A DNA stretch of 64,000 nucleotides from a virus: IMG/VR virus record IMGVR_UViG_3300037572_000374, positions 14,506-78,505 of that record; one strand, written 5' to 3'. The notes beneath the pieces are model-generated. The model was not told the origin of the DNA. It saw only the letters and a program-made list of their open reading frames with translations, and ran no database searches. Positions 1 through 63,715 of the stretch are shown one piece after another (positions within the stretch are counted from its first letter, which is position 1; each line of letters begins with the position of its first letter). Made by a program: the position numbers and the translations under genes.

Positions 1-20
1 ACACAAAAACTAATAAAGAT

Positions 21-482
21 ATGACACTAAATGAGAAAAGAAAACTTTGGAGAGATGCTAACCCTGATAAGGTTAAAGCATCTAGAGATAAATGGAATCA
101 ATCTAACAAAGATAAGCTAGCAGGCTACAATAAGAAATGGAATGAGGATAATAAGGAAGCTAACAGAGCCATTAACTTAGAGAGACAGAGAGCCTACAGA
201 AAGACAAAGGTTGGTGTAGTTACTTGCATATATGGAGGTATGAAGGTTAGTAGTAAGAGAAGACAACACCCTGCACCAAACTTTTCTTCAAAAGAATTGA
301 GGGAGTGGATATTCTCTCAACCAAACTTTGAACAACTCTATACTGATTGGGTAGCTTCTGATTACAGCAGATGGATGAAACCTTCTTGTGACAGAATAGA
401 CAGTTCTCTACCCTACACATTTGATAATCTTCAGCTAATGACTTGGAGAGAGAATGACAAAAAAGAGAAGTCTAACCTATAA
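21..482 (+). CDS. HNH-like endonuclease family protein
   Basis: C-terminal PSCDRIDSSLPYTFDNLQLMTWREN resembles phage HNH-like nucleases; basic repetitive N-terminus. Confidence 0.5.
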   Translation: MTLNEKRKLWRDANPDKVKASRDKWNQSNKDKLAGYNKKWNEDNKEANRAINLERQRAYRKTKVGVVTCIYGGMKVSSKRRQHPAPNFSSKELREWIFSQPNFEQLYTDWVASDYSRWMKPSCDRIDSSLPYTFDNLQLMTWRENDKKEKSNL

Positions 483-646
483 AGATCACCTATTACTTTC
501 AACCATGCAACAGTTAATATCATAAAGTAATAGCATAATCACTAATGGACATAACCAAAAGTGAATAGAGATAGAGAGGACCTCTGAGGATTGAACACAG
601 GTAAATAAACAAGGAAAGGACCTTTGTTCAATCAAACATAGGTAAC

Positions 647-689
647 AAAAAAAAAGACCCTAGAGATTAATTACTTCTCTAGAGTCTTA
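647..689 (-). terminator. Rho-independent terminator of the leftward transcript
   Basis: Minus strand stem AAGACTCTAGAGA/TCTCTAGGGTCTT followed by a long T run. Confidence 0.75.
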
Positions 690-694
690 GTTTT

Positions 695-913
695 ATTAAG
701 TGAGGCTGTGCCTTAGGAGATCTCTTTTGAGATACAGAGCTGATACTCTTTCATCCTCCTCTCCTATCAGAGAGAGTTATTTTGTTACACAGTTATGAGA
801 AACTTCTTCTCGTCCTTTGCTCAAGTTCATTATCTTGTCCTATTATTATAGATGCTCTACTTTAAGCTAACCTCCGTCTGGAGACTTGGTAGTAATGTTA
901 CCCCAAGACCTTC
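695..913 (-). ncRNA. 3' half of candidate large structured ncRNA
   Basis: No credible ORF; 703-740 is an imperfect inverted repeat of 2828-2866; 823-831 pairs with 2792-2800; ends at a terminator. Confidence 0.5.
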
Positions 914-927
914 TATAAACAATTAAA

Positions 928-1095
928 TTAATCATTTCCGTTAGGGCAACACCAGCCGTTTACCTTTATAGTTTTACCATCACCATATTTTTCAATTATC
1001 TTAATTGCTTTTTTCATAGCTTTACCGTCTAACGGCTTACCGTCTGTTTGTGTAGGACACCCACACCACCCACATCTAAATAAGTTTGCATTCAT
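928..1095 (-). CDS. Cassette ORF, 55 aa, Cys-rich (CGWCGC...WCC), possible Zn-binding
   Basis: Translated by hand: MNANLFRCGWCGCPTQTDGKPLDG...VNGWCCPNGND*; below ORF track cutoff. Confidence 0.6.
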   Translation of the reverse strand: MNANLFRCGWCGCPTQTDGKPLDGKAMKKAIKIIEKYGDGKTIKVNGWCCPNGND

Positions 1096-1137
1096 AATTA
1101 TTAATTTAAAAGTTCATATACAATTCGTTGTAGGCAA

Positions 1138-1386
1138 TTAAAGCCTTTCCATTATTTCCGAAAGCCTATCACTATTATGCGGTTGGCAGTTATCATAAGC
1201 AAAGTCTTTTAAATCTTCTAAAGCTTTTAACTGTTCGCTTCGCCCCACAACATCGGTTAAAGTTAATTGCTCAGTTTTGTACTCGTTTAAATAAGCATCC
1301 ATTGCTTTATGTATTTCATCCCATTGCATAGGCGTTAATCTACCTATCATTGGGTGTAATTTTAAAATGTCTTGTTTGTTTTTCAT
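1138..1386 (-). CDS. Cassette ORF, hypothetical protein (start probably MKNKQD)
   Basis: ORF track 1138-1422; reads through an attC-like arm (LTLTDVVGRSEQL). Confidence 0.55.
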   Translation of the reverse strand: MKNKQDILKLHPMIGRLTPMQWDEIHKAMDAYLNEYKTEQLTLTDVVGRSEQLKALEDLKDFAYDNCQPHNSDRLSEIMERL

Positions 1387-1449
1387 TTTATGTTTATTTA
1401 ATTCTGTTAATATCCCACGCAACTAACCATATACTAATACGTTATAAAC
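1243..1449. repeat. attC-like hairpin site (long loop)
   Basis: CCCCACAAC..GTTAATTGC pairs with GCAACTAAC..GTTATAAAC. Confidence 0.5.
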
Positions 1450-1451
1450 AA

Positions 1452-1592
1452 TTAAAAATAACCGCTTTCGTGCAATCTAATATAAGCCTCGCAATTTGCA
1501 AGGTTGCTTTGGTACGCAACACTATCATCATCTGCATTTAATACTTGGTAAGTATCGTTCATAAGTAATTGTACTCTAAAATTTCGTTCCAT
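1452..1592 (-). CDS. Cassette ORF, 46 aa hypothetical
   Basis: Translated by hand: MERNFRVQLLMNDTYQVLNADDDSVAYQSNLANCEAYIRLHESGYF*. Confidence 0.6.
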   Translation of the reverse strand: MERNFRVQLLMNDTYQVLNADDDSVAYQSNLANCEAYIRLHESGYF

Positions 1593-1611
1593 AATTCATT
1601 TATTTTTAAAA

Positions 1612-1691
1612 GTTAATAACACCGCATATAATTCATTTGCAACTTGTCTGTGCGGTAAGGCAAACAAATCATATTCGTTTCCGTTATAAAC
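1612..1691. repeat. attC-like hairpin site
   Basis: AAC..CATATAATTCATTTGC pairs with GCAAACAAATCATATT..GTT. Confidence 0.65.
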
Positions 1692-1887
1692 AATTTAATA
1701 CTAAACTTTTACCTTTCAATATAGCATAGTCTTGTATCTGTGTCATAAAAAGCACAACTCCACTATTATTAGGTCTGTGCTTACTGTACATTAAAAGCAT
1801 ACCAAAAGAATTATTGTATTGTTCAATAGTTTTACTGCTTTTTAAACACTTGTAAATTTTGTCTAATTTTTTAAATTCTGTTTTCAT
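1684..1887 (-). CDS. Cassette ORF, 67 aa hypothetical
   Basis: ORF track; stop codon lies inside the TAAC core of the site. Confidence 0.6.
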   Translation of the reverse strand: MKTEFKKLDKIYKCLKSSKTIEQYNNSFGMLLMYSKHRPNNSGVVLFMTQIQDYAILKGKSLVLNCL

Positions 1888-1903
1888 ATTTCCGTATTAA
1901 AAA

Positions 1904-2002
1904 GTTAATAACAACGTATAAAATTAATACGCTATGATGGTCAGTACTTTAATTTAAACTTCTGTAATAGGCGTACTAACCTTATACCTATCAGTTGGTG
2001 AT
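1904..2002. repeat. attC-like hairpin site
   Basis: AAC..GTATAAAATTAATACGC pairs with GCGTACTAACCTTATAC..GTT. Confidence 0.7.
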
Positions 2003-2004
2003 AA

Positions 2005-2229
2005 TTAGGGCTTATCTCCTAAAAAAGAAAGTCCTTCAAACAACTCTACATATTTGCCAAATACGTTCTTAACTCCAAGTATATTAAATATAATAAGGCT
2101 TATAAGCATAGGTACATATAGCAAGGCTACTACAAACAAAACCCTAACTATAACCAACACCCTATATAAAATATTAAATAGTATTGTTTCTTTAAAAGGC
2201 TTGTCGTTTACTTTTAATTGTATTTTCAT
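2005..2229 (-). CDS. Cassette ORF, 74 aa membrane protein
   Basis: ORF track; long hydrophobic stretch; starts inside an attC-like loop. Confidence 0.55.
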   Translation of the reverse strand: MKIQLKVNDKPFKETILFNILYRVLVIVRVLFVVALLYVPMLISLIIFNILGVKNVFGKYVELFEGLSFLGDKP

Positions 2230-2288
2230 TTTTATAAAATTTAAGTTATTATTAATTTAACATTCCATATATGCGAAACGTTATATGC
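2150..2288. repeat. attC-like hairpin site
   Basis: AAC..TATATAAAATATTAAAT pairs with ATTTAACATTCCATATATG..GTT. Confidence 0.6.
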
Positions 2289-2424
2289 AATTAAACATTC
2301 GTTGTATATCTTCGTTTGGTACATCTTTCCAAAACATCTGTCTAAACATACAATAGTATTTATTTGTTTTCTCTTGTTTTTCTGTTGGCGTTAAGTTATT
2401 CCACCATATATTAAAGTTCTTCAT
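2281..2424 (-). CDS. Cassette ORF, 47 aa hypothetical
   Basis: Translated by hand: MKNFNIWWNNLTPTEKQEKTNKYYCMFRQMFWKDVPNEDIQRMFNCI*; stop inside TAAC core. Confidence 0.6.
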   Translation of the reverse strand: MKNFNIWWNNLTPTEKQEKTNKYYCMFRQMFWKDVPNEDIQRMFNCI

Positions 2425-2441
2425 CTCTCAAAGTATTAAAA

Positions 2442-2541
2442 GCATATAACAAAGGCTAAAATTAATAGCCTAAATACGCTTAGTTTTTTAATTGATTAGT
2501 TCATTACTTAGGCTACTAATCTTAGCCAAACCGTTAGGCAG
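2442..2541. repeat. attC-like hairpin site
   Basis: AAC-AAA-GGCTAAAATTAATAGCCTAAATA pairs with TACTTAGGCTACTAATCTTAGCC-AAACC-GTTAGGC (GTTRRRY). Confidence 0.75.
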
Positions 2542-2580
2542 AACATTAAAACGATTTGCCAACAATGTATATAAACAATT

Positions 2581-2875
2581 TCTCAAATGATTGGATCCTC
2601 TTTCAACCCATTTCACTCTTTTATTTAACTACATCCCTTAGGGATGTAAGCAATTGTCCTTAATGTATTGAAGTTTGTTAGTGGGATTGCAATGCCATCT
2701 TTGAATAGCTAGCCTATTATTTAACGTGACTTACACACGGTAGTATTACTATAGCTTGACAAGCCTATTAACATGTTACTTCAAAATTTTCAATGAACTT
2801 ATGTCTTGGTAGGCTAGTGAGAGACTTGCTCTGCTTCTTCGAGAACCTTTCCTAAAAAGGCTGCCTTCTTTCGAC
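2581..2875 (-). ncRNA. 5' half of candidate large structured ncRNA
   Basis: No credible ORF, starts just downstream of promoter 2880-2912, has local hairpins (ACATCCCTTAGGGATGT 2631-2647) and long-range complementarity to 703-839. Confidence 0.5.
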
Positions 2876-2879
2876 ATGA

Positions 2880-2912
2880 TAAAGATACTCTTATTTAAAC
2901 ATACGGGGCAAC
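2880..2912 (-). promoter_or_regulatory. Bacteroidota sigmaA-type promoter (TTG..GAGTATCTTTA)
   Basis: Copy of recurrent motif; matches -33 TTG / -7 TAnnTTT spacing. Confidence 0.75.
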
Positions 2913-2929
2913 AAAAAGTTTAATTATTT

Positions 2930-3175
2930 TTAATTATTTTTTTGAGGCAAAGTTAAAATTAACACTACCACCTTTACTAGTGTGGCTCCCATGATTGAAA
3001 AAGCTATATGTTTATTTGGCATATCTGCAAACTCTTTAAAGCCATACACAAGCATGCCATCCATTACTAACATAAGTATTAAAGGTAACATTGCAAATTC
3101 TTGAGGTAGTAATCTACCTATTCTCTGAGATACTAATGCTATCAAAAGCATCCCTACTATTAGTCCTATTATCAT
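2930..3175 (-). CDS. Small membrane protein (about 3 TM)
   Basis: Hydrophobic 81 aa ORF overlapping the upstream stop. Confidence 0.6.
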   Translation of the reverse strand: MIIGLIVGMLLIALVSQRIGRLLPQEFAMLPLILMLVMDGMLVYGFKEFADMPNKHIAFSIMGATLVKVVVLILTLPQKNN

Positions 3176-3846
3176 TTTTTTATTGCTATTGCGATTTGTG
3201 CAGCCATAATCCTGGCTCCTTGGTCATTATTGTGTACATGATCGTGATAGTTGTTTAAATTGATGCTACCATCTGCATTTAACATTGGGGTTCTTAAATC
3301 AATGATTTCAAACCCTGGTGTGCTGTCAAACATTTGACTTATGATCTCAGTCCTTGCTATGTGATTGCCATCACCATTGTCTGTTCTTGGTATCTCAGCA
3401 CAATAGAATACTTTGGATCCTTGAGCTAGCTTCTGTGTTATGATAAAAGATATTGTGTCAACTGATGTTTGTAAATCTCTATCATTCGTTCCAAACATGA
3501 TAACATAAATGTCAGCCAAAGGAATATCATCATACCTATCCATCAAGTTCTGAGAATTGGATCCACCTACAGCATCATGACCAAAGTTGTATTGGTCTGT
3601 TAATGATCCCACAAAGACAAATCTATTCTTTGCCTTGTGGTTGATATAATATCTCAGCTTTGAACTTCCGTGGCTGATGAATCTGCTATCTCCAATTGTC
3701 GATACAGTTTGAACTGGAGGGGGTGTTGGAATTATCTCAACCTCGTCAAACATTTTTTGTTCAGAATATAATTCTAACTGCTCATTGTCTTGACAACTTG
3801 TAAACAATACAAGTGCTACTAAAAAATTTCTTATACTACTTATCAT
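3172..3846 (-). CDS. SGNH/GDSL hydrolase, predicted lipoprotein
   Basis: IGDS, GGSNS, FGTND and DHVH blocks; lipobox LFTS-C; start moved to MISSIRN. Confidence 0.75.
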   Translation of the reverse strand: MISSIRNFLVALVLFTSCQDNEQLELYSEQKMFDEVEIIPTPPPVQTVSTIGDSRFISHGSSKLRYYINHKAKNRFVFVGSLTDQYNFGHDAVGGSNSQNLMDRYDDIPLADIYVIMFGTNDRDLQTSVDTISFIITQKLAQGSKVFYCAEIPRTDNGDGNHIARTEIISQMFDSTPGFEIIDLRTPMLNADGSINLNNYHDHVHNNDQGARIMAAQIAIAIKK

Positions 3847-4126
3847 AATAATTGATTTGGTTTTTATGTTGTTTTGCAATTGGAGTATTAAAGAGTGGTC
3901 CCACATTAACAATATTGTTATCCATTACATAATCAAATGCAGCTGGGCACCCCTCTATCTCCCAAACACGTCCAGTGCTGTCTTCAGTTACTACAAATAT
4001 GTTTACATCATACTGCTCTTGCATTATATCATACTCTATGTAGTAATCGTTACCTTCTATTTTAAATTCGTGCACAGCTCCTCTTAGCAAAGCATCTACC
4101 GATATTACTCCTTCACGCATTGTCAT
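3836..4126 (-). CDS. Hypothetical protein
   Basis: ORF track, operon-like overlaps. Confidence 0.55.
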   Translation of the reverse strand: MTMREGVISVDALLRGAVHEFKIEGNDYYIEYDIMQEQYDVNIFVVTEDSTGRVWEIEGCPAAFDYVMDNNIVNVGPLFNTPIAKQHKNQINYYDK

Positions 4127-4317
4127 TTTTTTATATTTTTTAAAATTTGTGTAATTGATAATGGCATTACATCTTCCATTGTTGGATTCTCATCCCATTC
4201 TACTATTGCATCCGCCGGGTATCCTTTCAGGATTCTTTCACACTCCTTGTCTTGGACAAAGTCTGTTACTGACGTATTGATAAGGTGTCTCTTACCGTTT
4301 ATGACTAGTACCTCCAT
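4123..4317 (-). CDS. Hypothetical protein
   Basis: ORF track, ATGA overlap. Confidence 0.55.
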   Translation of the reverse strand: MEVLVINGKRHLINTSVTDFVQDKECERILKGYPADAIVEWDENPTMEDVMPLSITQILKNIKK

Positions 4318-4459
4318 TAGATTATTGCTTTTAAGATTTTAATAGCTACCATTTGTTCTTCCTTAGTCATAGACATAAACTTTTCATTGAACTGTTCGTT
4401 GTCTACTAAGAACTGTGCTATCTTTTTATTCTGTTGTTTAGTTATAAATTTTTTCATAA

Positions 4460-4672
4460 TTAATATTTTAAATTTGTTCCAAATGTTTTGTTGAAGTCTT
4501 CACATCCTATCTGAATAGGTCTCTCCTCAACAATGTACTCTCCTTTTCTAAGAATCGTTTCATACCCATCGAACCAATCGTTAAGCTCCTTTTGCCATTG
4601 TGCCTTTTGCTGCTCAGTACTGAGACATGCTCTTACTTGTGTCAATTGTAATTGACTTAAAATTAAATCCAT
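4460..4672 (-). CDS. Hypothetical protein
   Basis: ORF track. Confidence 0.5.
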   Translation of the reverse strand: MDLILSQLQLTQVRACLSTEQQKAQWQKELNDWFDGYETILRKGEYIVEERPIQIGCEDFNKTFGTNLKY

Positions 4673-10825: not shown

Positions 10826-13657
10826 ATGGGAACGAGAATTGAAATATATAAAAATGAAGAGTGGCAAGCTCTTCAGCTGTCTAACAAGACTGCTATAAAG
10901 TACAATGCTGTTATAAACAAAATTGGAAAAGTTGCATCAAGGGAGATTAGTCACACCAATACTTTCGATCTCCCACCAACACATCAAAATATAAAGACAT
11001 TAGGATTGAACGTTTTCAATCCTTCTGATCTTGCAAAAGCAATGAATGCAAAATATGTCGCAAGATATTATGTAGAAGATAAACTTCTACAAAAAGGATT
11101 CATTGTAATTAATAATACAAATGGTGGATCAATTAAAGTAAATTTAATTGACGAAGCCTTAGATTTAACAACCAAGTGGGGATCAATGTCTTATCAAGAC
11201 TTACTAATGAGTGAGTCAATAGATATCCCAGCCGATTATGTAACAGCCATTGATGAGTTGAAAGCATACGACATGGACAAGACAGATGTGTTAGATCTAT
11301 TAAGTGAAGTAGGAACAAGAGGATATAATTTATGTTTGTTCCCTCACAACTTAAACATCATTGGAGATGATTTTCAAATCGACGACAATGGAGTAAGAGT
11401 TGACAATGCATTTAATCCATATCAGTCAAGACCAATTTTTAGTGCAAAGGCATTGTTTGATCTTGCAACTGAATCGTTTGGATATACTCCAACGTATGAT
11501 GACACAATAGATTGGGATGTAGTCGATAAGACTTTCATCGTCAATAATGGATTAGAGAAAAATGCAAAAGGAGAAAATGGAATACAGACTAAGGTTGGAG
11601 CTAACATAGCATTCAATGGACCTTACAATGTAGACTATGCAGGAGCTGAATCAAACTTCCATAGTGGATATACATTATTCAATTACCCATCAACAAGTTC
11701 ATTGAAACCAAATGACGTTGCAGGTTGGGTCAATCCAACATCGTTGGTATATTACAATTACTTTTTCGATGTTCCAAATTTGGATCCATGGATGAGTGAG
11801 AATTCAATATATGTACCAGATGTTGCAGCAGGAAATGTTGGAACAATAACTATGAGGGGTGTTTATGGAGAATCAGTTGGTACTGAGAATCAAATCGTTC
11901 ATATGATTTGGAAGAATGCCACTCCTGGAGGAAATATAATTACAAGTGAATCTACTACAATAGATGTTACACCAATGGCTTCAAATGCCATAGAGGTAGT
12001 TATAAATAAAACGTTATTTGATACTGTGCCAGCTGGAGCAGATTCTTTAATTGGAATCATGTTTTCATATGGAAGAAGTCAATTACAAGTTGGTCTGTCT
12101 CAGATTAGAAACATGACTGTAACTGAAACGTTTTTACCAGAAGGTGTAGTTGCTTTTGATGAGCAAGGACAATACTTACCTGATGAAGTAGATCTTAGAT
12201 ATGCAGCACCAAGTAAAAGTATTAAAGACATACTATCTGGTGTGATGCATAAAGAAGGAATCTTGATGAATGTCAATTCGTTTGACAAAACAATTAAGTT
12301 CTTTGCTTATGGAGAATATCAAACGCAAAAAGAAAGTGGAAACTATTATGACTGGTCAGATTATTTGATTAGAGACGGATCCTTTTTACACAATACAGAT
12401 TATGGAAAGAGTTTTGGTAGATCAAATGTCATAGGACTATCTTCTCCATATCCAGGAAATACATTTATCTACTCCTTAGAAAATCAAGGAGAGGATTCTA
12501 AATATAAAGAATCTGTAAATAATTTTGTATCTCAATTTAGTGATATAATAAATGTTCAAGAAATAAATAATTCACTAGTACCTTATTTTGAATACGAACA
12601 CAAGGGATTTGGATTGGTAGAACAAGAAGGAACTTTGGGTACATTAAGTCAACAAAGATTTAATGGAGTAACTCAAGGAAGTTTAGTAGGATTACCCAAG
12701 CTAGCAAATGTCAACTATGCAATACTTCCAAGTGGAGTTAGGCAGTGGTATGATCTTGTTGATAAGGCTGTTAGGGTGAATGCTAAATTTCTTCTACCAG
12801 TTGATGTTGTAAAGAACATTGATCTAAGTCAACCAGTATATGTTGAAGAATTAGGAGGGTTTTATATTATAGAGGAGATTGCAGAATATGTAAATGGTCA
12901 GCAACAAGTAACTGTTAAGTTGATAAAACTTATAGATAACTTGTTAGGAGATTATGATACTGGAGGAGCAATTGATATAGCTGCTGGAGTAACATTAGTT
13001 TCAACAGCTTATGCACCCAACAATCTTGTTGGACCATTTAATTATGGAGTGTACAATGTTGTGAATTTTGCAAACTATACTCCAATATCAGCAGAAATAT
13101 CTTATCAAAAGTTAACTGATAATATCGATAATGGAGGAGTAGCTACTGGCTCTCCATCTGTTGTAGACTTTACAGCTAATTTAGGATCACCTTATACAAA
13201 CATCAATATAAATCTTGCGGCATCAATACCAATTACAGCTGCAGAGGAAGGATGGTATGAAATTCAGGTGAGTGCTGATAATGCAGCAAGTGAAGCATTA
13301 TCTTCAAATATAGAATATGCTTATTTAGGTGATTCGTCGCCACCACCAGCTCCAAGTGTGAGTGTGTATGTGGATTTATTCCCTACAATTACACCAGCAA
13401 GTGGATCTGAGTATATGGTCTTTTCATACGATAATCATACAGCTCTACCAACAAGTTCAGTACTTACTTGGCAGAAGTGGGGTTATTTAACACAAGTTCC
13501 TTTAGGAATAGAAAGAACAACTACATTCCCAACGAATGTAAGTTCTGGAACACAGTTAGTAGACTTTATAGATGGAGCAGGGTTTTACCATGTAACTTTA
13601 ACAACCAATGAAGGAGAATCTGAAGAATTATTCATAGGAGGACATTTCATAACTTAA
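10826..13657 (+). CDS. Large tail tip/baseplate hub protein
   Basis: 943 aa; N-terminal SHTNTFDLPPT..N motif of Bacteroidota phage tail proteins; next to tape measure. Confidence 0.55.
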   Translation: MGTRIEIYKNEEWQALQLSNKTAIKYNAVINKIGKVASREISHTNTFDLPPTHQNIKTLGLNVFNPSDLAKAMNAKYVARYYVEDKLLQKGFIVINNTNGGSIKVNLIDEALDLTTKWGSMSYQDLLMSESIDIPADYVTAIDELKAYDMDKTDVLDLLSEVGTRGYNLCLFPHNLNIIGDDFQIDDNGVRVDNAFNPYQSRPIFSAKALFDLATESFGYTPTYDDTIDWDVVDKTFIVNNGLEKNAKGENGIQTKVGANIAFNGPYNVDYAGAESNFHSGYTLFNYPSTSSLKPNDVAGWVNPTSLVYYNYFFDVPNLDPWMSENSIYVPDVAAGNVGTITMRGVYGESVGTENQIVHMIWKNATPGGNIITSESTTIDVTPMASNAIEVVINKTLFDTVPAGADSLIGIMFSYGRSQLQVGLSQIRNMTVTETFLPEGVVAFDEQGQYLPDEVDLRYAAPSKSIKDILSGVMHKEGILMNVNSFDKTIKFFAYGEYQTQKESGNYYDWSDYLIRDGSFLHNTDYGKSFGRSNVIGLSSPYPGNTFIYSLENQGEDSKYKESVNNFVSQFSDIINVQEINNSLVPYFEYEHKGFGLVEQEGTLGTLSQQRFNGVTQGSLVGLPKLANVNYAILPSGVRQWYDLVDKAVRVNAKFLLPVDVVKNIDLSQPVYVEELGGFYIIEEIAEYVNGQQQVTVKLIKLIDNLLGDYDTGGAIDIAAGVTLVSTAYAPNNLVGPFNYGVYNVVNFANYTPISAEISYQKLTDNIDNGGVATGSPSVVDFTANLGSPYTNININLAASIPITAAEEGWYEIQVSADNAASEALSSNIEYAYLGDSSPPPAPSVSVYVDLFPTITPASGSEYMVFSYDNHTALPTSSVLTWQKWGYLTQVPLGIERTTTFPTNVSSGTQLVDFIDGAGFYHVTLTTNEGESEELFIGGHFIT

Positions 13658-35456: not shown

Positions 35457-37010
35457 ATGAATAAGGAACAAAATAAATTATACAATTACTGTAAAGCAAT
35501 GCTTCTAGATTTTACGATCGAAGGAGAATTCTTGCTTATAGATGGTAATAAGTATATGATCTTAAATGATGAAATTAATCTTATAGATGAAGATGGAGAT
35601 TTTGAACCTGATTCAGTTTTTAAACTAACTGACGATGTAGATGGATTTGTATATGAATTTGGAGGAAGATTCTATACACAAAATAAAGAACAAGATTTAA
35701 CTTTAACTGAGTTAAATTATATTGGTAAAGCAAAAGAGAAATTACCAACAAAATCTTTTCTAGGAATAAGATCAGGATATGAACTTATGAATGGAATGGG
35801 ATTATATAAGTCATGGATATCAAAAGCAAAGTTCTTAGGAGCTGAGGCTTTAGGAATCTGTGAGAAGAATACTCTTGGTGGAGTGCTAAACTTTCAGAAC
35901 GAATGTAAGAATGCAAACATCAAGTCAATAATTGGAATGACTATTTCTGTTGAAGGATCCAAAACATATGATGTAAAATTATATGCAAAGAACTTTCAAG
36001 GATGGTTAAACTTATTGAAGTTCAATACTATAATTAATGTAGATTTGAATTTCAGTGTTCCAATTTCAACATTAGAAAATAACAAAGAAGGATTATTCAT
36101 TGTTGCAGATCCTAAAAGTATGGATTATCACAATGTTAATGAATTAGATGTAGACTTTTATCAATTAGATACTGTAAACTTTTTGAATGCAGATAGAGAT
36201 GAGAAGTACATCAATAATTTAGAGCTATTTATTACGAGCGATATTGAACCAATTAGTATTACAGATGCATTTTATTTAGAATCACAAGACTTTCAGACTA
36301 GAGAATCTTTGTGGACTATCAATAAAGCATTTGACGATAAGACTGACAATCAATATTTCAAGTCTAAGTCACAATATGCTGGTGAATTATTAACTATGTT
36401 TGATTCACAAGATAAGAGTTGGATTGAATTGTATAAAAGAGCAATAAGTAATGAGGTAGTGTTGGTTGAGAATTGTAACTTTAGTTATGATACAGATACA
36501 AGACACTTGCCAAGATATATAATGACTGAAGAAGAGTCTGAAAACTTTGATACAAATGAACTATTGTTCATGAATATAGTTAAGAAAGGATTTAAAGATA
36601 GAGAAGTTAAGGATGCAGAAAAATATGTAGCAAGATTAAAAAAAGAGATTGCTGTATTGAAGATGGGTGATGTAATAGATTACTTTTTAAGTCTTCATGA
36701 TATTATTAGATATGCAAAAAGCAAAAAGATGTTAACTGGAATTGGTCGAGGATCAGCTGGTGGAAGTTTAGTTGCTTATTTGATGGGAATTATTCAAGTG
36801 GATCCTTTAAGATTCGATTTATTATTTGAAAGATTTTTGAATAGTGGAAGGATGGGTAAATTTGAAGAAAGACCTTCTTACATTATTGAAGCAGATGGTG
36901 AAACTTTAGAATTTGAAGAGGGATCCTTAGTAAGAATAAAAAGAGATAGTAAAGAAACAGTTGTCTTTGTACATGAAGTTGTAGAAGGTGATGAAATAAT
37001 AAGATACTAA
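35457..37010 (+). CDS. dnaE: DNA polymerase III alpha, N-terminal part (PHP and start of palm)
   Basis: GIGRGSAGGSLVAYLMGI..DPL..LLFERFLN, then a ~50 aa non-DnaE tail. Confidence 0.9.
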   Translation: MNKEQNKLYNYCKAMLLDFTIEGEFLLIDGNKYMILNDEINLIDEDGDFEPDSVFKLTDDVDGFVYEFGGRFYTQNKEQDLTLTELNYIGKAKEKLPTKSFLGIRSGYELMNGMGLYKSWISKAKFLGAEALGICEKNTLGGVLNFQNECKNANIKSIIGMTISVEGSKTYDVKLYAKNFQGWLNLLKFNTIINVDLNFSVPISTLENNKEGLFIVADPKSMDYHNVNELDVDFYQLDTVNFLNADRDEKYINNLELFITSDIEPISITDAFYLESQDFQTRESLWTINKAFDDKTDNQYFKSKSQYAGELLTMFDSQDKSWIELYKRAISNEVVLVENCNFSYDTDTRHLPRYIMTEEESENFDTNELLFMNIVKKGFKDREVKDAEKYVARLKKEIAVLKMGDVIDYFLSLHDIIRYAKSKKMLTGIGRGSAGGSLVAYLMGIIQVDPLRFDLLFERFLNSGRMGKFEERPSYIIEADGETLEFEEGSLVRIKRDSKETVVFVHEVVEGDEIIRY

Positions 37011-37013
37011 AAT

Positions 37014-39035
37014 ATGAAAGTAACTAAGATAACACAAAACACCTCTATGAAGTTGGTAGATGGAACGCTTCCAGATATTGATACAGATTTTGCTGGTAGA
37101 AATAGAGCTGAGATTAAACAATACATGGAAGATAGATTTGGTCAAGAACAAGTGTGTTCAGTAGGATCTTATTCTACTATGAAATTGAAAGGCTTGGTAA
37201 AAGATTTTGCAAGAATATCTTCAGTTGACTTTAAAGAAGCTAATCTAATTACTTCAATAATTGATGCAGGAGATTTAACTATGTTAGATTTAATTAAAAG
37301 AGCTAGTAGTGAGCCAAGATTAAAGTCTTTCATTCAAAGGAACAGTGACATATTCTATATGTTGCCTACTTTGTTAGATCAGCCTAAGACACAATCAATT
37401 CATCCATGTGCTGTAATTATATTCCCAAGTGTAATGAGTGCATCAGAATGGGTGCCAACAAGGTTACAACAAGGATTAGTAGTTTCAGAATGGGGAGGTA
37501 ATGAAATGGATGATGCTGGATTCTTAAAGGATGATATTTTAGGTATTAAGCAATTAGATAAGTTTACAGATATCTTAGATCTCATAAAGATTAATGATAA
37601 AGAAGTACCTAACATATATGATCTACCACACGATCCAGAAGTATTCAGATACTTTGGTAATGGATGGAATGGAGATGTGTTTCAATTAGGATCCACTGGA
37701 CTTACAGAATATAGTAAAGCACTAAAGCCTCAAAGAATTGAAGATTTAATTGCTGCAACTGCTGTATATAGACCTGGACCAATGGAGAATCACTATCATG
37801 AGATTTATGTAAAGTGTAAGAATGAAGGTAGAGAGCCTAAATACTTATGGGGTACAGAAGAGATTGCAAAGGATACATTTGGACTTTTGATATATCAGGA
37901 ACAAGTAATGCAAGTGTTCCAATTAGTTGGAGGACTGAGTATGAAAGAAGCTGATGATGTTAGGAGAGCAATGGGTAAAAAGAAGTTATCTGCATTGTTA
38001 AAGTGGAAAGAGAAAGTAGCTCAGGGATTCTTAGATAAAGGAGCAACACAAGCTCAGTTTGATGAAGTGTGGGTAGCAGTAATGGAGTTTGCAAAGTATG
38101 GATTCAATAAGAGTCACTCTGCTGCATATGCTATGACTGGTTATGCTTCTCAATGGTTAAAAGTTCATTATCCAATTGAATATTGGACAGTGGCTTTAGA
38201 TTATGCAAATGAAGAAGATACTTTAAAGTATTTATCTGAAATTATGCAAGCCAAAGCAATTAGTGTGAAGGCTCCAGATATTAATCACTCAGCAATGAGT
38301 ATGATATCTGATCAAGAATCAAGTACAATCTTTTGGGGATTAGGATCCATCAAAGGTATTGGAGAAGATACAGCTAATCAAATTATTCAAGATAGAATTG
38401 AAAAAGGAGATTATAAGTCTTTTGCAGATTTTGTATTCAGACATAACTTCAAAGGTAGTAAAGTAAAGAAACAAACATATGAAGCACTAATTGCATCAGG
38501 ATGTTTTGATGATTTATACAATCTTGAAGGTAGAGAAGAAAGAAGACATCTGTTAATAAAGAGATATAGAAAGTATAAAAAAGTAAAGATAGCCAATCCT
38601 AAAAGAGATGTTTATACAATAGGACAGACAGATCAAAGATGGTGGTGGTCATTACAGCAAAAGAGATTAACTGGTTTAGCATTCTTAGACTATAAAGGAA
38701 TAGCAGAAGACTATGGAGTAGAATCTCAATTTGCTACATTAAGTGAAGTTAGTGGAAAGCAAGAGAAATCTATCTTTAGAAGTTTTGGTGGATACATAGT
38801 AGAAGCTAAAGTTGCAAGATCAGCTAAAGGTGAATATTGTAGAATAACAATAGAACATAATTACAAGTTATTTAAGATTATGGTTTGGTCAGAAGAGTTT
38901 GAAAACTTTAAGACTCAACTAAAAGGATCTGAAAAGAATCTGATAATATTTGAGGGTGAATTAAGATATGATGCCAAGTGGGCTAGAGCAAATCAGTTTA
39001 CAATCAAAGAAAATTCAAAATTAATTGTTCTCTAG
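37014..39035 (+). CDS. dnaE: DNA polymerase III alpha, C-terminal part
   Basis: LPDIDTDF, KDDILG, YRPGPM, YQEQVM, YGFNKSHSAAY. Confidence 0.9.
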   Translation: MKVTKITQNTSMKLVDGTLPDIDTDFAGRNRAEIKQYMEDRFGQEQVCSVGSYSTMKLKGLVKDFARISSVDFKEANLITSIIDAGDLTMLDLIKRASSEPRLKSFIQRNSDIFYMLPTLLDQPKTQSIHPCAVIIFPSVMSASEWVPTRLQQGLVVSEWGGNEMDDAGFLKDDILGIKQLDKFTDILDLIKINDKEVPNIYDLPHDPEVFRYFGNGWNGDVFQLGSTGLTEYSKALKPQRIEDLIAATAVYRPGPMENHYHEIYVKCKNEGREPKYLWGTEEIAKDTFGLLIYQEQVMQVFQLVGGLSMKEADDVRRAMGKKKLSALLKWKEKVAQGFLDKGATQAQFDEVWVAVMEFAKYGFNKSHSAAYAMTGYASQWLKVHYPIEYWTVALDYANEEDTLKYLSEIMQAKAISVKAPDINHSAMSMISDQESSTIFWGLGSIKGIGEDTANQIIQDRIEKGDYKSFADFVFRHNFKGSKVKKQTYEALIASGCFDDLYNLEGREERRHLLIKRYRKYKKVKIANPKRDVYTIGQTDQRWWWSLQQKRLTGLAFLDYKGIAEDYGVESQFATLSEVSGKQEKSIFRSFGGYIVEAKVARSAKGEYCRITIEHNYKLFKIMVWSEEFENFKTQLKGSEKNLIIFEGELRYDAKWARANQFTIKENSKLIVL

Positions 39036-61360: not shown

Positions 61361-63715
61361 ATGGAGAATAATGAACAAAAAATGAAAGCCCAAGGTGTGG
61401 CTAAAGTCTACAAAGACATCCTTACCAAAGCTGGAAACAATAAGAGCGTTTCTTCAACTCAGGTTGGACAACAAATGTTATTTAATGAAGCCTTGAGGAT
61501 CTATCCTGAGGTATTGGATTGGATCGATAACAAGTGTGCCAACATGCACAGAACTAAAATAAAAGAGTACTTCTCAACTAAAGAAATTTTGGTTGAGAAG
61601 ATTACTCAAACTCTTTTATTCTTGTCAGGTCAGGTTCACTATGGAGAAGATCATGACAAAGGACTTCGTTCCAAGTCTCGACACAAGAGTGTGGCTGCAC
61701 TTTGCAAAAAAGTTATGCCAGAATTGGAGTGGGAGAATACGTATAGATTTGTAGAGATTGTTGTAGAAGCATCTCAATACTATACAAAATCATCAAAGCC
61801 TGCTCACAAAGGAGAGGCTTATAATGTTAAGATGAACTATGAGTCTACACTAAGCTGTCAGATACTAGAGAAACTTGCAGAGAAGGCTTTAAAGGCATTC
61901 TATCCAATGCCAACGACTGAGAAGCCATTGGACTGGAATATCAATGCAGAGAACAAAGCTGTAGGTGGATATGATGAAACTGTGGGTGGATATAAAACTC
62001 ATCAGTTTAAATTGATACGTCAAGATGAAAGGTTGGTAGATTATTCTAAGATATCTCAAGAGGTATTGGATTCAATCAACTACATACAGTCAACACCATG
62101 GATAGTTAATAAACCTATGTTAGAGGTTGTTGAGAGAGATTTGAAGATTCCAGTAAGAGAAGACTTTGTTAAATTAGAATATCCAGATCATACTGAATGT
62201 CAATATGAGATTGATCTTAAAGACGAAGAAGTAAAGAAGACTTTGGATAACAAGTTTATAGAAGAGTTGATCATTACAAGAAATCAATATCAAGATCAGA
62301 TTCAATTATATAGAGCTGAGGCTTCAGACTTTGAAAGTGAATTAGGAAAGTATAGAGCCATCAAACTAGCTTTGAAGATTGCAAATGATTATAAGGATGA
62401 GGAAGAAATTTACTTTCCACATTCGTTTGACTTTAGAGGTAGAGTTTATCCATTACCAATTGGATTAAGTCCTCAGGGTTCAGATGCAGTGAAGTCTTTA
62501 TTGTTGTATAAGAATGGTGAAGTACTTAATAGGAATGGTGCTGAGTGGGGATTTGCTTACTTGGCTTCATTATATGGAGAAGACAAATTGGACTTCTTAG
62601 ATCGTGTTGAAATGGGTATGAGTCTTATGGAAGCAGATTATAAACAAGCTGATGAGCCATATCAATTCCTAGCACATCAACTATTACTTAAAGAGGTAGT
62701 TGAAGATCCTTCAATAGAATTTAGAGGTAGAATACATTTAGATGCTTGTAATAGTGGATCACAATTCACTTCAGCAATTACTGGAGATCTTTCTGGATGC
62801 TTAGCAACAAATGTAATTCCTTCGTTTGAAGATAACAGACAAGTTAGAAAGGATGCTTACTTATTAGTAGCAGAGAGAGCTTTGGAGTTATGTAAGAAGA
62901 AAATATCTAAGGCTGGAGATAGAAAGACTAAACAGATGTTTGAATTCTTTTATGAATTACTAACTACCAATGGAAGAAAGATTTGTAAGGTGCCAGTAAT
63001 GGTTTCTAATTATGGTGGAACGATGGGAGGAAGAACTGAGATTCTTTGGAATATGTTTAGAGAGTTGAAGGTAGATAGAAAATGGATCACTAAGAAAGTT
63101 GCAGCACAGTTTAGTAAGTTGATAGGAGATTCAATTACTGGAACTCTTAAAGGTGGTAAGGCATTTGAAACTTATATTCACAAGATGAATAATTTAGTTG
63201 CTATGAATAATAGACACGTTGAATGGACTACAAGTGATGGGTTTAGAATTGTGCATGTTAAGAATAAAGAACTAAAACCTAAACAAGTAACAGTGATGCT
63301 TCCAGCATCAAGAAAATCTACTGTCATCATCAAGAGAAGATGGAGCGACAGTGTATCAGTTGCTAAGATGAAGTTGGCAATTAGTCCTAATTATATACAT
63401 TCATTAGATGCAGAGTTGCTTAGAAGAGTTGCTTTGAGAATGAAGGAGGAAGGAATTGTTGATTCAGATTGGATACATGATTCATTTGGATGTCATCCAA
63501 ACTATGTTGAGTTGATGTTAGACATAACGAAAGAGGAGTTTGGAGATTTAGTTATGAGGGATCCTTTGAGTGTACTTGATAGTGAATTGAGATCTCAGAT
63601 GATTATGAATGATAAGACCATAGATGGATTGTCTCAGTGTGACATTCCAAGATTGAACGAATTCGAGATGAAGGATATTGAAAAGGTATGGACTTCAGAT
63701 TGGTTCTTTAGTTAA
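61361..63715 (+). CDS. Single-subunit T7-like DNA-directed RNA polymerase
   Basis: FDFRGRVYP, PQGSD, motif A DACNSGSQ, motif B RKICKVPVMVSNYG, PNYIHSLDA, motif C IHDSFG. Confidence 0.95.
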   Translation: MENNEQKMKAQGVAKVYKDILTKAGNNKSVSSTQVGQQMLFNEALRIYPEVLDWIDNKCANMHRTKIKEYFSTKEILVEKITQTLLFLSGQVHYGEDHDKGLRSKSRHKSVAALCKKVMPELEWENTYRFVEIVVEASQYYTKSSKPAHKGEAYNVKMNYESTLSCQILEKLAEKALKAFYPMPTTEKPLDWNINAENKAVGGYDETVGGYKTHQFKLIRQDERLVDYSKISQEVLDSINYIQSTPWIVNKPMLEVVERDLKIPVREDFVKLEYPDHTECQYEIDLKDEEVKKTLDNKFIEELIITRNQYQDQIQLYRAEASDFESELGKYRAIKLALKIANDYKDEEEIYFPHSFDFRGRVYPLPIGLSPQGSDAVKSLLLYKNGEVLNRNGAEWGFAYLASLYGEDKLDFLDRVEMGMSLMEADYKQADEPYQFLAHQLLLKEVVEDPSIEFRGRIHLDACNSGSQFTSAITGDLSGCLATNVIPSFEDNRQVRKDAYLLVAERALELCKKKISKAGDRKTKQMFEFFYELLTTNGRKICKVPVMVSNYGGTMGGRTEILWNMFRELKVDRKWITKKVAAQFSKLIGDSITGTLKGGKAFETYIHKMNNLVAMNNRHVEWTTSDGFRIVHVKNKELKPKQVTVMLPASRKSTVIIKRRWSDSVSVAKMKLAISPNYIHSLDAELLRRVALRMKEEGIVDSDWIHDSFGCHPNYVELMLDITKEEFGDLVMRDPLSVLDSELRSQMIMNDKTIDGLSQCDIPRLNEFEMKDIEKVWTSDWFFS

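Follow-up and report, generated by a model that had tools for sequence, protein, structure and literature searches.

The proposed cassette array

Positions 912–2580 of a 64,000-nt stretch of viral DNA (the window, which is bases 14506–78505 of the 78.5-kb record IMGVR_UViG_3300037572_000374, 98% complete) contain a short array of small genes and repeated hairpin sites resembling the attC sites of integrons. Six co-oriented open reading frames (ORFs) of 46–82 amino acids (aa) are encoded on the minus strand, the gene strand, and joints of a single family lie between them. Each joint has a left arm with an outer AAC box and, in most cases, a right arm with an outer GTT box. The joints (S0–S7) and ORFs, all on the minus strand, are listed below from the opening to the closing joint. 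Scores labelled R1 were obtained with a covariance model of the site described in the next section, and those for single arms with profiles of each arm.

2552..2577, minus: S0, a right-arm-only copy (TTTATATAC-ATT-GTTGG...) that opens the array; right-arm profile, 10.6 bits at 2557-2575
2439..2544, minus: S1, a complete hairpin site; AAC 2535-2533, GTT 2450-2448; R1 68.8 bits, E 2e-13
2281..2424, minus: ORF6, 47 aa, of no known family, with a stop codon that overlaps TAAC in S2
2147..2291, minus: S2, a complete site; AAC 2282-2280, GTT 2158-2156; R1 41.0 bits, E 6e-7
2005..2229, minus: ORF5, 74 aa, of no known family, hydrophobic and membrane-like
1901..2005, minus: S3, a complete site; AAC 1996-1994, GTT 1912-1910; R1 57.8 bits
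1684..1887, minus: ORF4, 67 aa, of no known family, with a stop codon that overlaps TAAC in S4
1609..1694, minus: S4, a complete short site; AAC 1685-1683, GTT 1620-1618; R1 53.5 bits
1452..1592, minus: ORF3, 46 aa; cassette in common with viral contig L051
1240..1454, minus: S5; left arm 1418-1454, AAC 1443-1441; tentative right arm 1246-1271, GTT 1251-1249
1138..1386, minus: ORF2, 82 aa; N-terminal 45 codons in the loop of S5; 46-bp match to gp032 of Cellulophaga phage phi19:3
1114..1140, minus: S6, a partial left arm with no right arm; AAC 1129-1127; left-arm profile, 12.8 bits
928..1095, minus: ORF1, 55 aa, cysteine-rich, no known family
912..930, minus: S7, the remnant of a degenerate left arm (AATTGTTTATAGA, without AAC) at the closing end of the array; read from the sequence and a motif count

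A preliminary description of this stretch, made by inspection of the letters and predicted ORFs, had proposed five AAC...GTT hairpins. Four of these were recovered by R1 (E 2e-13 to 6e-7), while the fifth (1243–1449, here S5) combines a strong left arm with a weak right one. The left arm of S5 scored 25.6 bits, the best in the genome, and the right arm 7.7 bits. R1 matched S5 weakly and paired its left arm with a different partner, and the minimum free energy fold of 1236–1460 leaves the S5 arms unpaired. The two partial arms that had been noted were both found by the profiles (1114–1140, 12.8 bits; 2557–2575, 10.6 bits), and the stop codons at 1684 and 2281 do overlap TAAC as described. The six ORFs are co-oriented, and, as a correction to that description, two right arms lie inside ORFs. 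The loop and right arm of S2 fall within the 5′ part of ORF5, and the right arm of S5 is read in frame within ORF2, as ...LTDV. ORF2 looks like a chimera joined at this right arm.

The left-arm 13-mer occurred five times in 1.7 kb, on one strand only, and had 14 matches in the whole 64 kb. The inner part of S3 was 78–87% identical to sites of Tenacibaculum phage Gundel_1 and of other contigs, where the flanking sequences are unrelated. None of the six array ORFs had a match in Pfam or PHROGs, and Rfam found no family in the window or the region at gathering and E-value thresholds. Searches of GenBank phages with megablast and blastn gave only short matches to sites or gene fragments.

Structure of the sites

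Twenty left arms from this phage genome and from Polaribacter phage P12002S, Tenacibaculum phage Gundel_1 and Cellulophaga phage phi19:3 were aligned, and profiles of both arms were screened against viral contigs retrieved with a loose pattern. Many viral contigs were found to have co-oriented arrays, and R1, the model described next, gave 9 sites in Polaribacter phage P12002S/L. The covariance model R1 was then built from 20 sites in other phage contigs, with none taken from the genome under study, and comprises 21 pairs, 12 of which show compensatory changes. The left arm follows directly after a stop codon and has the form AATT-N5-YAAC-G-N5-7-GTATAWG-N2-4-AGTnCG. In most joints it is followed further on by a right arm, GCnATTAATTTTATAC-NNT-GTTR. 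The arms are inverted repeats with unequal unpaired spacers, and the overall layout is ...YAAC, an unpaired spacer, a stem of about 16 bp, a variable loop and GTTR.... The spacers are about 6–7 nt on one side and 3 nt on the other, and not the 2-nt asymmetry given in the preliminary description.

A set of 109 distinct sites from bacteria and the window was aligned by fitting to the model, which favours the structure, and an independent MAFFT alignment agreed. In this set, 97.9% of cells were paired, compared with 82.9% in shuffles and 30–57% in slid controls. Double changes were present in 14 of the 21 pairs, and the covariation score of 0.379 (0.107 in the shuffles) was reached by none of 500 shuffles. 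In the 16-bp stem alone, 13 pairs had double changes and 98.5% of cells were paired. The outer AAC and GTT boxes were invariant (108/108 sites) and three G.T pairs in the stem were near-invariant. S1 illustrates the pattern, with GGCTAA/TTAGCC replacing GTATAA/TTATAC as a compensatory variant. The architecture is attC-like, with strong covariation, as had been proposed.

Good folding of the window sites was confined to the minus strand, with RNA fold z-scores of -2.3 to -4.75; S1 had an RNA z-score of -4.75 on the minus strand and a DNA z-score of -0.45 on the plus strand. No conserved bulged (extrahelical) bases were found in the sites, and it is the three G.T pairs together with the asymmetric spacer that make only one strand fold well. 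The distance from AAC to GTT ranged from 44 to 281 nt in phages, with length classes near 47, 65, 84, 120 and 187 nt. Bacterial sites were less variable than those of phages, nearly all being 110–129 nt.

Cassette signature and exchange of units between phages

In the preliminary description, 9-mers at the outer ends of the hairpins were reported to match across each cassette. The matches quoted were correct, and the signature proved to be general in phage and bacterial loci. When the 12 nt starting from GTT (R′) were compared with the 12 nt ending at AAC (R″), the two boxes of one hairpin in phage loci matched at an average of 6.12 of 12 positions (n=42), the level of random pairs (6.11). R′ matched the next downstream R″ at 8.62 of 12 positions, with 62% of these pairs at 9/12 or better compared with 6% of random pairs. 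The signal was sharper in bacterial loci, at 6.30 within the hairpin, 6.08 for random pairs and 9.94 across the cassette, where 89% of pairs reached at least 9/12. The across-cassette pairs of the window scored 10, 10, 9, 9 and 7 of 12. With a full-length match to R1, a co-oriented array and this signature, the window joints belong to the Bacteroidota hairpin-site family defined by the model.

Exchange of such units was found between two phage contigs, L115 and L056, which are 99.7% identical from one AAC|G to another, a segment spanning the interior of one site and one gene. Beyond these points the two are unrelated, and about 5 nt are common at each junction, which is too little for homologous recombination. 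The two clean junctions give a hint that crossover could take place 1–3 nt into the spacer. The unit exchanged, from AAC|G to the next AAC|G, therefore consists of site interior, R′ box, gene and R″ box, and each gene is thus bracketed by an inverted repeat of 10–12 nt. When the ends of blocks at least 93% identical were counted, taking those no more than 40 nt from a site, 17 of the 21 were at a left arm and 13 of these lay within 4 nt of its AAC.

The ORF3 cassette of the window is found in viral contig L051 in a block that is about 90% identical overall and a mosaic of segments of 75–99% identity. The homology starts exactly at the AAC|G of S4 and stops exactly at the GTT of the S5 right arm inside ORF2. 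Past that GTT, L051 bears the C-terminal part of another gene of the same phage genome, and chimeric genes have therefore formed at an in-frame right arm.

Two complete related phages, with primases 59–63% identical to that of the window, had no match to R1 and no homologue of the array genes. Gene order among the relatives, which the preliminary description had raised as a possible objection if fixed, is therefore not fixed, and the sites follow host taxon and not phage ancestry. A search for close relatives via the flanking proteins yielded none for a lipase-like gene and N-terminal similarity only for the HNH-like gene. The phage is present in the marine samples coded X1–X5, and in metagenome run X3 a 2715-nt contig was identical to the window from 4500 down to 2162, in the right arm of S2, and then continued into 376 nt of unlike sequence. 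This may be a natural variant breaking at the S2 right arm.

Related arrays and a linked recombinase in Bacteroidota

When 185,579 species genomes were scanned for the right-arm motif, at least 120 loci were found and, among the loci listed, nearly all were in Bacteroidota, mostly in Flavobacteriaceae. R1 matches (E <=1e-6) were present in 74 of 81 sampled Flavobacteriaceae genomes, consistent with the earlier assignment to a Bacteroidota-type system. Many bacterial loci had 5–10 complete sites in 8 kb, and chromosomal arrays reached about 40 kb, as in Formosa sp. A9 (1,645,195 to 1,683,675) and a Pontimicrobium genome (1,942,578 to 1,981,056). Two draft genomes contained at least 139 and at least 146 sites. 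In the Formosa sp. A9 chromosome, comparison of loci L184 and L247 revealed cassette-sized blocks of 491–1227 bp that are 97.5–100% identical and differ in order, which suggests cassette duplication or shuffling within the host.

A tyrosine recombinase of 378–390 aa lies at the R′ end of both complete arrays, on the strand opposite the sites and hence co-directional with the cassette genes; an array-linked recombinase gene of Formosa sp. A9 is at G001:C1:1684978-1686147. The linked tyrosine recombinase anticipated by the preliminary description is thus an Xer/IntI-like enzyme that heads the host arrays. Its best matches were to archaeal XerA-type models, and it scored 199–209 bits against the integron integrase model TIGR02249, for which the cut-off is 265. 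A segment of 62 residues in VchIntIA corresponds to 19 in this enzyme, which therefore does not have the IntI-specific insertion. Of the 81 sampled Flavobacteriaceae genomes, 64 had a full-length relative, and the recombinase shared a contig with listed sites, with the same geometry, in at least 15 genomes. Many recombinase copies in G036, G044, G054, G057 and other Flavobacteriaceae contain one or two in-frame stops, which suggests decaying arrays. The recombinase gp036, found beside the array of phi19:3, was considered and is unrelated to the array-linked host recombinase (E 0.22).

No tyrosine recombinase is encoded in the 78.5-kb phage genome (no match to PF00589), in agreement with the earlier remark that no integrase lies nearby. 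None of the cassette genes was common to the sampled phage and bacterial loci, which had only the sites in common, at 73–77% identity. The same joints are found in the phage and in Flavobacteriaceae chromosomes, and phage and host therefore seem to share an integron-like gene-swapping system.

The orientation of the genes relative to the sites, a point missed in the preliminary description, differs between the two groups. In bacterial arrays the ORFs were opposite to the folding strand in 35 of 36 cases, as in canonical integrons, whereas in all seven phage arrays, including that of the window, they were on the folding strand. In the phages the site interior is therefore upstream of the gene and the mRNA carries a stable hairpin.

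Genomic context of the array

The array sits in an accessory (hyperplastic) region of the phage genome, which has genes for a primase-helicase, a T7-like RNA polymerase and a DNA polymerase split in two. The phage is virulent and marine, and its host is presumably a member of the Flavobacteriaceae. Features outside the array are as follows.

13229-13641 of the genome (G000:C1:13229-13641; L002:1490-1903), about 0.9-1.3 kb before the window start, plus: second mini-array; one R1 match, E 0.009
21-482 of the window, plus: endonuclease VII (EndoVII)/HNH-like endonuclease gene, between the two arrays
647..686, minus: terminator-like hairpin, an 11-bp stem then nine T on the minus strand; read from the sequence
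2585..2879, minus: non-coding leader, from promoter to array; short hairpin near 2630-2650, no convincing ORF
2880..2912, minus: predicted phage promoter of the type read by host RNA polymerase; -33 box GTTGC (2912-2908), -7 box GTATCTTTA (2888-2880)
35457-37010 and 37014-39035 of the window, plus: DNA polymerase as two adjoining ORFs
61361-63715 of the window, plus: single-subunit T7-like RNA polymerase, 784 aa

The surrounding hypervariable region of 15 kb (window about -8500 to 6700; genome 6.0–21.2 kb) holds about 45 small ORFs between conserved blocks, with almost no homologues in the two related complete phages. The G+C content of the region is 26–31%. In the second mini-array, a right arm is in frame within a 134-aa ORF (...ITDV) and a 51-aa ORF is flanked by inverted arm copies. 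Both arrays are oriented towards the central HNH/EndoVII-like gene, and HNH genes were also found inside or beside the arrays of P12002S, Gundel_1 and phi19:3.

The preliminary description had the array transcribed from a promoter at 2880. The sequence there is a perfect member of a family of about 35 copies in the 78.5-kb genome of a bipartite motif (GTTGC, about 20 nt, GTATCTTTA/G), and a whole-genome motif scan found no copy within 914–2580. The copies are mostly in front of genes on both strands, for example at window 2880–2912, 5079, 5423 and 6485 (minus). The promoter at 2880–2912 probably drives the whole array, judging from its position and match to the motif, and the hairpin at 647–686 likely ends the array transcript. 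A consensus terminator scan missed this hairpin because its loop is 9 nt. No attI-like site was identified; the predicted phage promoter at 2888 does read into the array. The left arm was also considered as a promoter, either ECF-like (extracytoplasmic function sigma factor; AAC-N16-AGT) or of the Bacteroidota -33/-7 type, and this was rejected, as the repeated promoter of the phage differs and the arm is antisense to the bacterial genes.

Two long non-coding stretches, 483–912 and 2585–2879, border the array. By blastn they have no mutual complementarity and no homologue in the relatives or elsewhere. The leader at 2585–2879 had no Rfam match and no homologue in related phages.

Comparison with known systems

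Integrons are the textbook gene-capture system of Proteobacteria. The sites described here differ from attC in that the strand appears to be marked by three G.T pairs and a spacer of 6–7 nt opposite one of 3 nt, and not by extrahelical bases, and in that the phage ORFs are on the folding strand with some sites extending into coding sequence. The linked host recombinase, without the IntI insertion and below the integron integrase cut-off, also sets the system apart from integrons. The likeness to attC sites and to integrase-less attC clusters (CALINs) lies in an imperfect hairpin whose outer AAC and GTT boxes are separated by an unpaired spacer from an inner stem that ends in a variable loop (Cury 2016, bioRxiv 10.1101/030866, PMC4889954). 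It extends to structure being conserved over sequence, folding of one strand, the match of R′ to the next R″, the exchange of units and the lack of an integrase nearby.

The host arrays resemble the Vibrio superintegron and its VCRs in their length of tens of kb, their 110–129-nt repeats of one family, their co-oriented genes and the recombinase at one end. They belong to another phylum and have a recombinase of another subfamily, whose gene is co-directional with the cassette genes, while the window holds a six-cassette fragment in a phage. In elements of the CTX-phi type, a hairpin in single-stranded phage DNA mimics the two-arm core site for the host Xer recombinase, which acts in trans. 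There, a complete phage genome is integrated at dif, whereas here many sites separate single genes.

The T4-type PeSL elements, which combine a promoter with a terminator or stem-loop and act by homologous recombination, likewise border small orphan genes in the hyperplastic regions of lytic phage genomes, where they give rise to modular shuffling (PMC2839356, PMC4122927). The window joints, unlike PeSLs, do not contain the phage promoter motif, are common to host chromosomes and have the cassette-specific inverted-repeat signature.

CALINs have been reported in virulent phages (Cury 2016, PMC4889954; PMC9024848; PMC9892861), and a census with IntegronFinder 2.0 found hardly any integrons among Bacteroidetes (PMC9024848). 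In Polaribacter phage P12002L, a pair of sites was classed as a CALIN by Qi et al. 2023 (PMC9892861). Judged from its primer sequence (PMC9892861), the first of these, attC1, is clearly a short member of the window site family, and attC2, which recombined with its bottom strand only (PMC9892861), ends in a right arm of the family. In the literature searched we found no description of the Bacteroidota hairpin-site family as a cassette system, nor of phage use of host Xer-type cassette machinery.

Interpretation of the array

We consider it likely that six mobile gene cassettes make up a short array at 912–2580, with integron-like sites that are found across Bacteroidota and on which a host recombinase acts. 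During infection, the recombinase would act in trans on folded phage DNA and would insert, excise or swap phage cassettes. In host chromosomes, hundreds of cassettes are separated by the same sites. A single transcript may cover the array, starting at the 2888 promoter and ending at the terminator near 650, and in-frame right arms, as in ORF2 and ORF5, could let the front and back halves of small proteins recombine.

Several observations weigh against this interpretation. The phage has no recombinase of its own and the host is presumed only. No recombination event was seen in the phage, metagenome contigs over 1–4500 showed no such joints in the parts covered (rare variants and circles are invisible in contigs), and attC1 of P12002L gave no verified recombinants with IntI1 (PMC9892861). 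Three of the eight joints (S0, S6 and S7) are partial and the S5 right arm is weak, and the array may be a decaying fossil. Direct exchange between phage and host is no more than a possibility, given the inverted polarity of the ORFs and the lack of a cassette gene common to the phage and bacterial loci sampled. The boundary with L051 falls at a right-arm GTT and not at AAC, a position compatible with homologous recombination or with an exchange on the opposite strand. A hairpin acting as RNA would likewise be compatible with the invariant G.U pairs and with the sense orientation in phages.

The first alternative, which we regard as unlikely, is that the repeats are conserved patches for ordinary homologous recombination, as for PeSLs (PMC2839356, PMC4122927), with no site-specific enzyme at work in the phage and the attC-like appearance inherited from bacterial DNA. 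As the arms end at AAC and GTT, crossovers within an arm would seem to map there. The lack of a phage recombinase agrees with this account, as do the mosaic nature of the window/L051 block and its boundary at the GTT inside ORF2. This boundary is not what a single crossover point would give, and no other result speaks more strongly for a degree of homologous or other-strand exchange. The account is harder to reconcile with the junctions of L115 and L056, where the parents share about 5 nt on the outer side, and with block ends that cluster within about 4 nt of AAC and are not spread along the 35-nt arm. It gives no reason for R′ complementing the next R″, and the left arm is not the promoter of the phage as it would be in a PeSL.

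A role in RNA is less probable still. Here the phage hairpins would be kept mainly for processing, as a stabiliser or as an attenuator, with mobility a by-product. All seven phage arrays have their genes on the folding strand, so that the mRNA bears the G.U-containing stem; the RNA fold z-scores (-2.3 to -4.75) would be in keeping with this, and a segment of S1 resembles a terminator by its score. Against this, 35 of 36 bacterial arrays have their genes antisense to the folding strand, so the structure cannot be in their mRNA. The inverted repeats across genes and the exchange of units from AAC to AAC are left unexplained, related phages manage without the sites, and no Rfam family matches. 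Homologous recombination between the repeats may still contribute, as may an additional role in RNA.

Chance palindromes or low-complexity repeats in AT-rich intergenic DNA are already refuted as an explanation by E values down to 2e-13 with a model from other genomes, by a covariation signal that beat 500 of 500 shuffles and by taxon-specific genome matches, even though short AT-rich motifs recur often at 26–31% G+C and many of the matches to the loose 14-base pattern in viral contigs were single and probably spurious.

A more specific proposal is that lytic Flavobacteriaceae phages actively use the Xer-type cassette machinery of their hosts in trans to exchange accessory genes with other phages, with inverted polarity (the site upstream and in sense) and with chimeric small proteins formed from interchangeable halves via in-frame sites. 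We put this forward tentatively, as somewhat less than an even prospect. The family described here combines the logic of integrons with a different type of recombinase, and is found in most of the Flavobacteriaceae sampled as well as in lytic phages of these bacteria. Were the phage sites active, they would explain the movement of orphan genes between unrelated marine phages, link the accessory gene pools of phage and host and provide natural joints for swapping protein halves. Should phages indeed be using the host machinery, this would be an integron-like exon-shuffling device in viruses.

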